The notes beneath the pieces are model-generated. The model did not search any database, was not told the origin of the DNA, and was given only the letters and a program-made list of their open reading frames with translations. From an uncultured Chryseobacterium sp. (lineage in GTDB: Bacteria > Bacteroidota > Bacteroidia > Flavobacteriales_F > PHOS-HE28), in contig CAZUNW010000006.1 of NCBI GenBank assembly GCA_964621425.1, forward strand, positions 1 through 28,031: 28,031 nt of DNA, in the 5' to 3' direction. Within the stretch, counting starts at the first letter, position 1, and each line of letters begins with the position of its first letter. Below, in pieces: positions 18,070 through 22,496 of this stretch. Made by a program: the position numbers and the translations under genes.

Positions 18070-18077
18070 TACCTTTG
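18070..18077 (+). promoter_or_regulatory. -7 element of the mbnP-peroxidase operon
   Basis: Perfect TAnnTTTG (TACCTTTG), 50 nt upstream of ATG 18128. Confidence 0.55.
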
Positions 18078-18127: not shown

Positions 18128-18883
18128 ATGCGCATGCGCCGGTCGATCCCCCTGATGCTCGTCATCCTTGTCGCACCGCTGTTCTCCGGCTGCCAGAAGC
18201 CCCCGGCAGGTGGCGGTCCGGAAGGTTTTGTCCGGTTGAAGGTCCAGGCCACATGGGAGGGGCAGCCCTTGCAGGCCGGCCAGGTGCACGTGAACGCGAG
18301 CGGCTATCGTGTGCAGGTGGAGCTACTGAAGCTGTACCTGGCTGAGGTGCGGTTGACCGGTCCGTCCGGTGCTGCCCCGCTTATGGACATCACGTTGCTG
18401 AACGCTTTCGGCACAGGTGGTGCCCCGGTCCTCCCGGTCGCTTCGGGCAGCTACATTGGCCTTCATTTCGGGCTCGGGGTCCCGCCTGAGCTCAACGCCT
18501 CGGATCCGGTGCTCTATCCGGTCGGTCATCCGCTCAGCGTAAGCAACGGTACCTACTGGACCTGGGCCACGGGCTACCGCTTCGTGATGTTCGATGGCCG
18601 GTATGACACGGATCCGGATGGAACGGGTGCTCCCCTGAGCCTGTTCTCCATCCACACCGGAATGGCCCCCTGTTACCAAGTGCGGGACATGGACCTGGCG
18701 ACCCCCTTTGTCGTGGAGCCCGGGGATACCACCGACCTGGTGCTGCAACTGGCCGTGGAGCGGTTCTTCACCAGTGCCACGGACACCATCGACCTGGCGG
18801 TGGACAACCAGTCACATGGGGAGAACATGCCGCTTGCCCTGAGGTTCACGGAGAACGTCCTCAACAGCATCACGTTGGAGTGA
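18128..18883 (+). CDS. MbnP-family lipoprotein (WxW motif, putative copper-binding)
   Basis: Lipobox LFSG|C, LKLYLAEVRL, GLHFGLGVPPELNASDP, YWTWATGYRF (WxW at 18557-18565), IHTG and SHG. Directly upstream of di-heme peroxidase-like genes, as in mbnP-mbnH pairs. Confidence 0.78.
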   Translation: MRMRRSIPLMLVILVAPLFSGCQKPPAGGGPEGFVRLKVQATWEGQPLQAGQVHVNASGYRVQVELLKLYLAEVRLTGPSGAAPLMDITLLNAFGTGGAPVLPVASGSYIGLHFGLGVPPELNASDPVLYPVGHPLSVSNGTYWTWATGYRFVMFDGRYDTDPDGTGAPLSLFSIHTGMAPCYQVRDMDLATPFVVEPGDTTDLVLQLAVERFFTSATDTIDLAVDNQSHGENMPLALRFTENVLNSITLE

Positions 18884-19890
18884 GGGGGACGGCGGTCATC
18901 GGTCTCCTTGTCTTCCTTGCCGCCTGCCGCAAGGATGCACCGCTGCGTTCGGAGGGTCCTGCCGAGCCCCTTGTGCTTGATCTTCCCGCGTGGGTGCCGA
19001 ACCCTCCGGTCCCGGAGGATAATCCGCTCACACGGCAGGGCGTAGAGCTCGGCCGGCGGCTCTTCTTTGAGCCCCGTCTCTCGCGCACCGGTGCGCTCAA
19101 TTGTGCCGGGTGCCATTTCGTGGACCGTGCGTTCAGCGACACGGTGTCATTGAGCCTGGGGGTGGACCAGCAGCCCGGGCTGCGCAATGCGCCGACCCTG
19201 GCCAATCTGGCCTATCACCCGTCCTTTTTTCGCGATGGTGGGGTTCCCTCCCTCGAACTGCAGGTGCTGGCGCCGATCCACGACGCGCTTGAAATGGACC
19301 ACAGCATCCTTGAGGCCGCCGACGCAATCGGGGAGGAGGAGCCCTATCGCAGCCTGAGCATGCAGGCCTACGGTCGCCCGCTTGACGCGTACGTGATCAC
19401 CCGGGCCATTGCCAGCTATGAGCGCACGCTGATCAGCGCCTGGTCGCGCTTCGACCGGTTCCTGTACCAAGGCGATACGGAGGCCCTCACTGCCAGTGAA
19501 CGTCGCGGGTGGGAGGTGTTCTCCGGTCCGGCGGCCCGCTGCAGCAGCTGCCATTCCGGCTTTGACCTGAGCGACCACAGTTTCCGGAACGTCGGCCAGT
19601 ACATGACCTATGCCGATGCCGGACGCGCGCGCATCACCCTGGACCCGGCCGATGAGGGGCGCTTCAAGGTGCCCACGTTGCGCAACATCGCGCTCACCGC
19701 CCCGTACATGCATGACGGTGCGCTGGCCACGCTGGATGAGGTGGTGGACCACTTCGCCTCCGGCGGGTACCCGCACCCCAACAAGGATCCCCTGATGACA
19801 CCGTTCACGCTTACCTTGGAGGAGCGCGCAGACCTGCTGGCCTTCCTGCGGGCGTTGACGGACGAGCAGGGACTTGAGCAAGCACCATGA
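18880..19890 (+). CDS. Di-heme cytochrome c peroxidase/MauG-family lipoprotein, atypical paralog
   Basis: Lipobox LAA|C. DNPLT..GVELGR.LFF..RLS, CAGCH (19102-19116), CSSCH (19540-19554) and FKVPTLRN...PYMHDG. The GTG overlaps the mbnP stop. Confidence 0.9.
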   Translation: MRGTAVIGLLVFLAACRKDAPLRSEGPAEPLVLDLPAWVPNPPVPEDNPLTRQGVELGRRLFFEPRLSRTGALNCAGCHFVDRAFSDTVSLSLGVDQQPGLRNAPTLANLAYHPSFFRDGGVPSLELQVLAPIHDALEMDHSILEAADAIGEEEPYRSLSMQAYGRPLDAYVITRAIASYERTLISAWSRFDRFLYQGDTEALTASERRGWEVFSGPAARCSSCHSGFDLSDHSFRNVGQYMTYADAGRARITLDPADEGRFKVPTLRNIALTAPYMHDGALATLDEVVDHFASGGYPHPNKDPLMTPFTLTLEERADLLAFLRALTDEQGLEQAP

Positions 19891-21014
19891 GCCCGCTCCA
19901 ACGCCGCACCATGCTCGTTTGCGCCGTGCTTGCCACGGCCATCGCTAGCTGCCGCAAGCCACGGCCCGATCCCCCGACCGGCGGAGGGCCGGCGGTGCCC
20001 GTTTATGACCCCACGCCCTATGACCTGCAGACACCGGCCAACTTCCCGCCGATGGTGATCCCGCAGGACAACCCCCTCACCGTGAAAGGGGTGGAACTGG
20101 GCCGATACCTCTTTTACGAGGAGCGCCTCAGCGGAGACAACACGCAAAGCTGCGCGGGATGCCACTCCCCCCAGGCCGCATTCAGCGATGCCCCGAACGT
20201 GTACAGTGTGGGGATCGACGGGCTGGAGGGTACGCGCAACGCCATGGCCCTGATGAACCTGGGCTGGGAGACGAGCTTCTTCTGGGATGGTCGTGCCGCC
20301 ACCCTGGAGGAGCAGATCCTCTTCCCGGTGGCGGACCCGGTGGAGATGCACGACTCCTGGCCGAACGCCGTGGCCGAGTTGCAGTCGGACGAAGCCTACC
20401 GGTCCCTGTTCATCGAGGCCTTTGATGCGGATCAGATCGACAGCACGCTGGTGGCGAAGGCCATCGCGCAGTTCCTGCGCACGATGATCAGTGCAAATGC
20501 GAAGGTGGACAAGGTGGCCCGGGGCGAGGCGGTCTTCACCTCGCAGGAACAGCGCGGGTTCATCCTCACCCAGCTGGAGGGCGGTGACCCTGCCGCCGGT
20601 CAGGGTGGCCAGTGGGGGGCGGACTGCTTCCACTGCCACACACAGGTGGGTGGCCTGTTCACCAATGGCCAGTTCGAGAACAACGGGCTGGATTCGGTCT
20701 TCACGGACCTGGGCCGTTTCAGTGTCACGGGCGACCCGCTGGACCGTGCCCGGTTCAAGGTGCCCACCTTGCGGAACGTGGCCCTCACCGGTCCATACAT
20801 GCACGATGGCCGCTTCCAGACGCTGGATCAGGTCATCGAGCACTACAACTCGGGTGGCGTCCCTTCGCCGACCATAAGCCCCTTCATGAAGTTCACCCAG
20901 GGAGGGTTGCAGCTGCCTGCCTCGGACAAGGCGGCCTTGATCGCGTTCCTGAACACCCTGACGGACCTCGATTTCATCAATGACCCGCGGTTCCAGGACC
21001 CGGGTGCGCCCTGA
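19887..21014 (+). CDS. Di-heme MauG/MbnH-like lipoprotein (His/Tyr-type)
   Basis: Lipobox IAS|C. CAGCH (20151-20165), FWDGRA.TLEEQ, CFHCH (20625-20639) and FKVPTLRN...PYMHDG...EHY. The ATG overlaps the preceding stop. Confidence 0.9.
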   Translation: MSPLQRRTMLVCAVLATAIASCRKPRPDPPTGGGPAVPVYDPTPYDLQTPANFPPMVIPQDNPLTVKGVELGRYLFYEERLSGDNTQSCAGCHSPQAAFSDAPNVYSVGIDGLEGTRNAMALMNLGWETSFFWDGRAATLEEQILFPVADPVEMHDSWPNAVAELQSDEAYRSLFIEAFDADQIDSTLVAKAIAQFLRTMISANAKVDKVARGEAVFTSQEQRGFILTQLEGGDPAAGQGGQWGADCFHCHTQVGGLFTNGQFENNGLDSVFTDLGRFSVTGDPLDRARFKVPTLRNVALTGPYMHDGRFQTLDQVIEHYNSGGVPSPTISPFMKFTQGGLQLPASDKAALIAFLNTLTDLDFINDPRFQDPGAP

Positions 21015-22496
21015 TCAGGCGGCTTGCTCCACGGCTGCTTCCGGCCTCCAGATGCGGCTGATCATGCGGTCGCCGAACACCTCGGGCTTGAACATGCTGG
21101 TACCCATGAGCATGCGGGCGCACTCCTGCACGCCCTCGGTGATGCTCGGGTGGGGGTGGACCAGCTCGGCCAGGTGCCGGATGCCCTGTCCCATGTGCAT
21201 GAGCAGTGCGACCGCCTGGATGGCGCTGGAGGCATGCTCGCCCACGGCACGCATGCCCAGGACCCGCATCTCCGCGTCATCCGTAACGATGAGCTTGAAG
21301 AAGCCCTCCGTGCGGCGCATGGCGATGGCCCGGGCCAGGCAGCTGTAATCGATGCGTGCCGTGCGGTGCGCGATGCCCCTGCGCCGGCATTCCTGCTCGT
21401 TCAGGCCCACACCGGCCACCTCCGGGTCGAGGAACATGATGGTGCTCACCTGTCCGTAGCTGATGGGCTCGGGATCCCGTCCCGCGATGAGCTCGGCGGC
21501 ATGCCGTCCCTCCAGTTCACCGAGGTTCACGAGCATGTTGCTTCCCGTGGCATCGCCCACGACCAGAATGTGCTCCTGCGCGGTGCGGATGCCGTCCACG
21601 GCGAGCGTGCCGAGGCGTGCGTCCAGTGCCAGTCCGGCCCTCTCAAGGCCCAGTCCCTGCAGGCTGGGCGTGCGTCCCACGGAAAGGAGGGCTTTTTCCA
21701 CGGTGACGCTCTCGGTGGAGCCGTCCGCGTAGCTCAACACGTAGTCCACCCCGGTGGCCGTGGCCTCCATCCGCTCCAGCTTGGCGGACCTGTGGATGAT
21801 GACGCCATTGCGTTCAAGGTTCCCGGCCACCAGTTCGCTCACGTCGGGGTCCTCGAAGGGCAGGATGCGTTCGGCCCGGTCGATGAGGTGCACGCGGGTG
21901 CGGCCAAGGTGGCTGAGGATCGTAGCGAACTCGCAACCGATGACCCCTGCACCGACGATGACGATGCTGTCAGGGAGCTCCTGTAGCTGGAAGATGCCGT
22001 CGCTGGTGAGGATCCGCTGTTCATCGGGCACCAGTCCGGGCAGCGAACGGGGTTTTGAGCCGGTGGCCACGATCACGTGGCCTGCACGTACCTCCCTGCG
22101 CTGGCCCTCAAATTCGATGGATATGGTATGTGGGTCCAGGAAGGATGCGTTGCCCCGTGCGTGCTGGAAGAGGCCTCCCTGGCCCTCCAGCAGGTGCATG
22201 TGGCATGCGTAGAGGTATTTGCGCTCGAAGACGGCCTCGTTCACCGTGCGCATGATGCCGGACCACGCGGGCTGGTAGGGGGGGATGCCGCGGGTGCGAA
22301 CCATGGCATTGGTGCCGGCCACACGCTGTGCGATCTCCCACAACGTCTTGGACATGAGCGCGCCGTTGTAAATGCCCGTGCCCCCGATGCGGTCGCGCTC
22401 CACAAGAAGGGTGCGCAGGCCCAGGTCGATGGCGCGCATGGCGGCCGCATAGCCCGCCGGTCCACCACCGATCACGCACAGGTCGACATGTTCCAT
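21015..22496 (-). CDS. Class I pyridine nucleotide-disulfide oxidoreductase-family flavoprotein without the redox disulfide (SthA/Lpd-like)
   Basis: FAD motif VIGGGPAG, ATGS.P, NAD motif GAGVIGCEFA, VGD and C-terminal HPSITE. The position of the CxxxxC motif reads GGTGIYNGALMSK. Start set at ATG 22496, 493 aa. Confidence 0.8.
   Translation of the reverse strand: MEHVDLCVIGGGPAGYAAAMRAIDLGLRTLLVERDRIGGTGIYNGALMSKTLWEIAQRVAGTNAMVRTRGIPPYQPAWSGIMRTVNEAVFERKYLYACHMHLLEGQGGLFQHARGNASFLDPHTISIEFEGQRREVRAGHVIVATGSKPRSLPGLVPDEQRILTSDGIFQLQELPDSIVIVGAGVIGCEFATILSHLGRTRVHLIDRAERILPFEDPDVSELVAGNLERNGVIIHRSAKLERMEATATGVDYVLSYADGSTESVTVEKALLSVGRTPSLQGLGLERAGLALDARLGTLAVDGIRTAQEHILVVGDATGSNMLVNLGELEGRHAAELIAGRDPEPISYGQVSTIMFLDPEVAGVGLNEQECRRRGIAHRTARIDYSCLARAIAMRRTEGFFKLIVTDDAEMRVLGMRAVGEHASSAIQAVALLMHMGQGIRHLAELVHPHPSITEGVQECARMLMGTSMFKPEVFGDRMISRIWRPEAAVEQAA

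Follow-up and report, generated by a model that had tools for sequence, protein, structure and literature searches.

Introduction

To our knowledge, the MbnP/MbnH pair of Methylosinus trichosporium OB3b (Protein Data Bank, PDB, entries 7L6G and 6E1C; NCBIfam TIGR04052 and TIGR04039) is the only system with an enzyme known to install a kynurenine metal ligand. The metal site of MbnP contains kynurenine and binds Cu(I) through His and Met, and Manesis et al. reportedly identified in 2021 the first Trp of the W-x-W motif of MbnP as the one converted to kynurenine. The present study deals with a related locus in a 28,031-nucleotide stretch of DNA from an uncultured Chryseobacterium sp., a freshwater bacterium of the Flavobacteriales (the whole stretch is hereafter called the window), in which three overlapping lipoprotein genes in the list of open reading frames, designated P, A, and B, span positions 18128-21014 of the + strand. 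We consider it probable, with modest confidence, that the MbnP/MbnH "metallo-mystery pair" has in this locus a Bacteroidota variant with a second, non-canonical di-haem enzyme (A), and the role that we assign to A is held with less confidence than the picture as a whole.

MbnH is needed for the conversion of Trp to kynurenine in the W-x-W motif of MbnP, which contains Trp174, and this conversion is a prerequisite of copper binding (PMC11951088). The enzyme shows a bis-Fe(IV) signature (PMC11892367), and the pair is conserved far beyond the producers of methanobactin (PMC3621798). The superfamily of di-haem enzymes shows strong conservation of the inter-haem Trp and of the Ca site; the E haem has His-Tyr ligation in MauG types and His-Met ligation in canonical peroxidases, which take up electrons via this haem and the inter-haem Trp, and BthA is a known exception that forms bis-Fe(IV) without an inter-haem Trp (PMC11892367). 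The characterised kynurenine sites, namely those of MbnP, MopE*, and CorA, all bind copper, MopE*/CorA doing so with two His and kynurenine (PMC11951088).

The locus in the window shares with MbnP/MbnH the gene order, P then H, and the MbnP-like gene P directly adjoins the di-haem gene A, as in the gene-pair definition GenProp0940. P has in common with MbnP its fold, its W-x-W motif, and an aligned His, and B has in common with MbnH two haems, the inter-haem Trp, the axial Tyr, and a C-x-H-C-H motif. Unlike MbnP/MbnH, the three proteins are all lipoproteins, they all score under the NCBIfam equivalog cut-offs, no methanobactin or TonB-receptor genes lie in the window, and there is a second di-haem paralogue, A, that has neither the Trp nor the Tyr. 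In MauG of Paracoccus denitrificans, which oxidises Trp residues of its partner, pre-methylamine dehydrogenase, through bis-Fe(IV), the likeness is again to B, in which the corresponding Trp and Tyr are found, together with, in its own sub-clade, a Trp beside haem 2; however, the match to MauG is weaker than that to MbnH (approximately 1e-28 vs 1e-55), no methylamine dehydrogenase genes were found, and the expected product is kynurenine rather than tryptophan tryptophylquinone. BthA of Burkholderia (6NX0, 6V59) provides a precedent for a working Trp-less enzyme, comparable to those A types in which the Tyr remains; its similarity in sequence is low (1e-11), and, unlike BthA, which has no Ca site, A keeps the Ca-site residues, the A protein of the window also being without the Tyr. 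MopE*/CorA with the di-haem CorB of methanotrophs represent a further case of a surface or secreted copper protein beside a di-haem peroxidase gene (PMC3621798, PMC11951088), and their kynurenine and two-His ligand set is resembled by the two conserved His of P, although their partner protein is folded differently and a single di-haem enzyme is present. The canonical di-haem cytochrome c peroxidases, such as that of N. europaea (1IQC), have the fold, the peroxide pocket, and the Ca site in common with the locus, and differ from it in having a His-Met E haem together with the inter-haem Trp and in having no MbnP partner.

The initial annotation of this DNA spoke of an undescribed system, which is an overstatement for a lineage variant of a pair that is itself so widely conserved. 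No description of the tandem layout or of a Trp-less, Tyr-less paralogue was found in the searchable literature, outside which the primary MbnH/MbnP papers lie. An orthodox enzyme beside a conserved paralogue that has lost the two residues associated with bis-Fe(IV) represents a natural test of what these residues are needed for, and the phylum-wide occurrence of the layout is a pointer to a role for MbnP-type proteins in common freshwater and soil Bacteroidota.

Organization of the locus

P (18128-18883), A (18880-19890), and B (19887-21014) are all encoded on the + strand, as are the residues for which positions are given below. The P and A genes overlap by 4 nucleotides (nt) in GTGA (18880-18883), and A and B in ATGA (19887-19890). 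Each protein has a lipobox Cys at the end of its signal peptide, i.e., Cys22 in P (F-S-G-C), Cys16 in A (L-A-A-C), and Cys22 in B (I-A-S-C), each of which is conserved in the alignment of its family. The overlaps and the lipoboxes both agree with the initial annotation, and three envelope lipoproteins that are transcribed together are the best explanation of this arrangement.

Regarding the single promoter that the initial annotation had placed upstream, the motif is present and its position is fitting: TACCTTTG (18070-18077, + strand), a candidate -7 element that fits the Bacteroidota consensus TAnnTTTG, lies 58 nt 5' of the first ATG, and the nearest relative, L007, has the same motif at -65 and -43, ahead of its P genes. 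However, TAnnTTTG occurs twice in the whole window against 1.35 occurrences expected, which is not above chance, so that what speaks for a promoter role of TACCTTTG is its position and the motif in L007 only. Scans for sigma-70 promoters and terminators found nothing.

The MbnP-like lipoprotein P

The first protein, P (251 amino acids, aa), belongs to the MbnP family, as initially annotated. It scored 93.3 bits with Pfam MbnP (PF20243) against a cut-off of 27, covering model positions 3-183 of 189, and a profile of 20 Bacteroidota relatives of P matched PDB 7L6G with an E value of 1.7e-8, the W-x-W motif (W-N-W in 7L6G) and His176 being aligned. The AlphaFold (AF2) model of P, which had a predicted local distance difference test score of 90.4, gave 7L6G as its sole significant fold match in the PDB (E 1e-8, probability 1.00, template modelling (TM) score 0.54/0.48).

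The W-x-W motif of P is found in Y-W-T-W-A-T-G-Y-R (residues 143-151). Among 45 relatives of P, its first Trp, W144 (18557-18559), was conserved in 45, the second, W146 (18563-18565), in 44, His176 (18653-18655), which aligns with a His of 7L6G, in 43, and a second conserved His, His230 (18815-18817), in 40. In the family alignment, His176 was invariant and the nearly invariant His230 was present in at least 90% of the sequences. The relatives contained between 0 and 5 Cys, which are not conserved.

The orthodox di-haem protein B and the non-canonical protein A

A (336 aa) and B (375 aa), which are 42% identical to each other, both match the CCP_MauG family of Pfam (155 and 181 bits, respectively), and the best PDB sequence match of each is MbnH (6E1C, approximately 1e-54). 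The AF2 model of A also superposes best on 6E1C, with a TM score of 0.84 and a root mean square deviation of 2.2 Å. Residue states over the homologues were assigned by hmmalign. The initial annotation had described two MbnH/MauG-like di-haem proteins, one of them orthodox and the other stripped-down, and this description holds at the level of the residues.

B has all the hallmarks of a MauG type by sequence. Haem motif 1 (CxxCH, C89-H93) is encoded at 20151-20165, and haem motif 2 (C-F-H-C-H, C247-H251; 20625-20639) has the C-x-H-C-H form of MbnH. The inter-haem Trp133 (F-F-W-D-G-R; 20283-20285) and Tyr320 (20844-20846), located where the E haem has its sixth ligand, are both kept and invariant in the alignment of B, and His-Tyr ligation is accordingly predicted for this protein. 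The G-A-D-C-F-H-C-H segment was nearly invariant in the B type. Trp243 (20613-20615), beside haem 2 and four residues before its motif, is conserved only in the sub-clade to which B itself belongs (5/18 B-type sequences), the others having Lys, Arg, Ser, Gly, or Phe.

A has two CxxCH motifs, C75-H79 (19102-19116) and C221-H225 (19540-19554). Alignment with MbnH and the N. europaea peroxidase placed Arg118 (F-F-R-D-G-G; 19231-19233) opposite the inter-haem Trp and Phe292 (19753-19755) opposite the axial residue, which is Tyr in MbnH and a Met ligand in the N. europaea enzyme, and A thus has, by sequence, neither the inter-haem Trp nor the Tyr for the His-Tyr ligation of MauG types. It retains Gln128, Pro132, and Glu138 of the peroxide pocket and Asn103, Thr273, and Pro275 of the Ca site, all of which are invariant, together with both CxxCH motifs, in 25 A-type sequences. 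These aligned with 46 invariant columns, and the conserved residues Pro105, Gly121, Ser160, Tyr164, Tyr244, and His299 are specific to the A type and not found in B. Among the 120 closest homologues of A (58-79% identity; metagenome genomes of Flavobacteriales), Arg was found in 107, Phe in 112, and the two CxxCH motifs in all 120.

The two losses differ in their extent. The Trp position is occupied by Arg, Met, Lys, Gly, or Ala in the 25 A types, the loss of Trp being clade-wide, while the axial Tyr is present in 19 of them and Phe occurs only in the lineage of the window and one other. In the Phe292 sub-clade, Trp188, Asp229, Asp232, and His233 are additionally invariant, which makes these residues candidates for compensating for the lost Tyr. 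The level of conservation of A is close to that of B, its Bacteroidota members group in an old clade of their own, and it follows a MbnP-like gene in nearly all of its loci, which identifies it as an old, constrained paralogue and not as a decaying copy. The mature protein starts with C-R-K-D (residues 16-20 region, 18925-18939), which is conserved in close orthologues and weakly resembles the surface-export signal of Bacteroidota lipoproteins; A might therefore be exposed on the surface.

Distribution and phylogeny

A sample of 400 Bacteroidota species genomes was searched for A, and the surroundings of its best matches gave 40 loci. In a tree of the di-haem proteins, the A type formed one clade of 25 (support by the Shimodaira-Hasegawa-like approximate likelihood ratio test, SH-aLRT, of 92) and the B type two clades (99 and 100), and the branching within the A and B clades was parallel, which indicates that the A-B pair is old. 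In 24/25 A-type loci a MbnP-like gene immediately preceded A, and in 18/25 B immediately followed it; four loci had the order P-B-P-A, and three had no B nearby. The loci were chosen by their similarity to A or B, which biases these co-occurrence counts, and the fractions are descriptive only. Within this scope, the survey supports the co-conservation of one MbnP-like and two di-haem genes that the initial annotation had expected.

The P-A-B layout was found in at least five families in two Bacteroidota classes, and over ten such loci the identity to the proteins of the window was 43-73% for A, 48-81% for B, and 24-66% for P. Within the family of the window, 57 of 60 other species genomes had an orthologue of A (≥50% identity), and B adjoined A in at least 35 of these 57 among the matches listed. 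Three long contigs of this family had P-A-B, in one case as P-P-A-B, with differing genes upstream.

The two di-haem genes were also found apart. The complete genomes G329 and G249 had P-A alone, with no B orthologue of more than 43% identity found using B as the query, and a search with B yielded nine loci with plain P-B pairs and no A. The heterodimer that the initial annotation had considered is thus not supported, and an obligate A-B heterodimer is unlikely from the gene content; the same loci suggest that A and B may each be able to work with a MbnP-like protein alone. A complex prediction for A and B with P as partner gave a median score of 0.24 against a mark of 0.32, which speaks neither for nor against binding.

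Loss of the inter-haem Trp has also occurred independently in a separate small clade, in which four genomes of one family have Ala at this position and a plain P-H pair. The 150 nearest 50%-identity cluster representatives contained 165 di-haem domains; the Trp/Tyr combination was present in 86 of these, approximately 70 were without the Trp, and approximately 10 were without both, these fractions again being descriptive for a sample anchored on similarity. The representative library also contained di-haem fusion chains (P0121-P0126, P0131, P0149, P0160, P0253, and P0267), among them chains of 1080-1190 aa with the order unknown 250 aa, di-haem, unknown 250 aa, di-haem, as well as di-haem/di-haem and MbnP/di-haem fusions; all fusion domains had the Trp, and all had the Tyr except for the second domain of P0160 (His). 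A score cut of 150 bits was used for the iterated MbnP hidden Markov model, and its matches to proteins with type IX secretion system (T9SS) tails (beta-lactamase-like, BNR) were discarded as profile drift.

A second MbnP-like gene

The genome of the window encodes a second MbnP-like lipoprotein, P' (254 aa; L001:1396-2160, + strand, on contig C88 of G000), which scored 104 bits with Pfam MbnP and carries H-W-G-W. It is unlinked to P-A-B and has no adjoining di-haem gene; on one side of it is a ketoacyl-synthase-like gene, and on the other a T9SS esterase-like gene in convergent orientation. Orthologues of P' are similarly orphans in several congeners, and a member of the P' clade heads a four-gene P'-P-A-B operon in two congeners (G403 and G405) and in a distant locus (L015). 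In the tree of MbnP-like proteins, the P' clade (SH-aLRT 97) had as its sister group (94) the MbnP clade whose genes are always found ahead of A types with a retained Tyr, and the placement of P and P' hints at two substrates for two enzymes. P' was rejected as the cognate substrate of A on the grounds that three congeners (G404, G410, and G415; 98-100% complete) have A and, by this query, no orthologue of P'. We keep P' as a substrate of A at the level of a possibility raised by the tree.

Proposed function and alternatives

In the variant of MbnP/MbnH that we propose, B would react with H2O2, or with O2 and electrons, to form a bis-Fe(IV) state and would oxidise Trp144 of P to kynurenine, which would complete a kynurenine/His176(/His230) site whose metal would most likely be copper. 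A, being presumably unable to use the Trp-mediated, Tyr-stabilised bis-Fe(IV) route, would represent an independent second oxidase that is directed at MbnP and puts its peroxide-binding haem to a different use, and may make another modification or act on another MbnP-type substrate, such as P' on contig C88. This role is suggested for A because of its place directly after a MbnP-like gene, its occurrence without B, and its retained peroxide-binding haem pocket.

A number of points weigh against this proposal, in addition to the biased choice of loci described above. The initial annotation had proposed searches with PF20243, CCP_MauG, TIGR04052, and TIGR04039, and while matches to the Pfam models were found, the NCBIfam cut-offs were missed: P scored 49.8 bits with TIGR04052 (MbnP_like_WxW), under the cut-off of 140 and over residues 104-187 only, and TIGR04039 (MbnH), although it was the best-scoring NCBIfam model for both di-haem proteins, gave 252.5 bits for A and 245.9 bits for B, under the cut-off of 362.85. 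The four-Cys motif in the chain name of 7L6G is absent from P, whose two Cys include that of the lipobox, and no residue of P could be assigned to the Met copper ligand of MbnP. In the MbnP tree, P groups with MbnP-like proteins that elsewhere precede Trp-containing enzymes. Regarding the enzyme that may act on P, adjacency favours A, while chemistry favours B. Copper handling by P-A-B is suggested by homology, and the further basis for copper consists of a multicopper oxidase that follows B in a single distant locus (L013).

A tentative alternative, which we regard as possible but clearly less probable than the proposal above, is that the A type represents a new mechanistic class of the superfamily that, despite the loss of the inter-haem Trp and, in the window, of the sixth ligand of the second haem, still oxidises MbnP-like lipoproteins in a specific post-translational reaction and that would form, with B, a two-enzyme, two-substrate (P and P') system in Bacteroidota; the oxidation by A could then be of a kind other than kynurenine formation or could proceed by another oxidant route.

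It appears unlikely that A is a catalytically dead adaptor that binds P or B, as a heterodimer or an escort, and leaves the chemistry to B. The loss of the two hallmark residues, the translational coupling of A to both of its neighbours, and the presence of B directly after A in 18/25 loci are all consistent with such an adaptor. However, a pure scaffold would need neither the CxxCH motifs nor the residues of the peroxide pocket and the Ca site, which are invariant in A; moreover, A is almost as conserved as B, and it occurs without a B orthologue in G329 and G249, as B does without A.

Rather improbable, in our estimation, is a site other than a copper site in P, i.e., a kynurenine/His/His site that binds another metal, or a modified Trp that is itself a redox or catalytic cofactor. 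The window has no copper gene, no neighbour is common to the distant loci, P is without the four Cys and under the MbnP equivalog cut-off, and the second conserved His (His230) may stand in for the Met ligand, all of which would fit this explanation. Against it stand the characterised kynurenine sites (MbnP, MopE*, and CorA), all of which bind copper, with two His and kynurenine in MopE*/CorA (PMC11951088). The multicopper oxidase after one distant P-A-B locus also points to copper.

MauG-type enzymes require an oxidant supply, and A has kept a peroxide-binding pocket, as a cytochrome serving B would do. The least probable of these explanations, that A handles peroxide or transfers electrons for B, as an H2O2 buffer, which was also a suggestion of the initial annotation, or an electron feed for an O2-driven cycle, and does not touch P, is difficult to reconcile with the absence from A of the inter-haem Trp and the sixth ligand used by canonical peroxidases (PMC11892367) and leaves both its place after a MbnP-like gene (24/25) and the P-A-only loci unexplained.

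Other di-haem proteins, neighbouring genes, and habitat

The genome encodes a third CCP_MauG protein, of 632 aa (L005:226-2124, - strand, contig C5), in which the Trp and Tyr are kept and a long extra region is present, and which has no adjoining MbnP-like gene. Three congeners (L063-L065; G409:C2, G468:C1, and G435:C1) have a second tandem di-haem pair with the second haem motifs C-V-D-C-H and C-D-L-C-H and no MbnP-like gene nearby; a pair of this type was not seen in the incomplete genome of the window.

The rest of the window contains menaquinone enzymes, a response regulator, AddAB-like helicase-nucleases, T9SS cargo proteins, and a flavoprotein. The gene survey agreed with the initial annotation that the window has no mbnABC, TonB-dependent transporter, or methylamine dehydrogenase genes, and no match to MbnB or the methylamine dehydrogenase light chain was found in the 70%-complete genome.

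The flavoprotein, which resembles pyridine-nucleotide disulphide oxidoreductases (21015-22496, - strand), is convergent to B, and its redox-cysteine segment, G-G-T-G-I-Y-N-G-A-L-M-S-K, is without Cys. It is also convergent to B in L007, L009, and L011 despite their differing upstream genes, and was not found beside P-A-B in other families. A functional link of the locus to this Cys-less flavoprotein or to the PKD/CHU_C giant was rejected, these neighbours being common to the window's own family only. In a distant family, a three-domain multicopper oxidase (L013:7046-8725, + strand; G207:C2) directly follows P-A-B, and is the only copper-related neighbour among the sampled loci. DNA of the locus, which no RNA run contained, was present in river, lake, reservoir, aquaculture, and wastewater metagenomes from nine studies.

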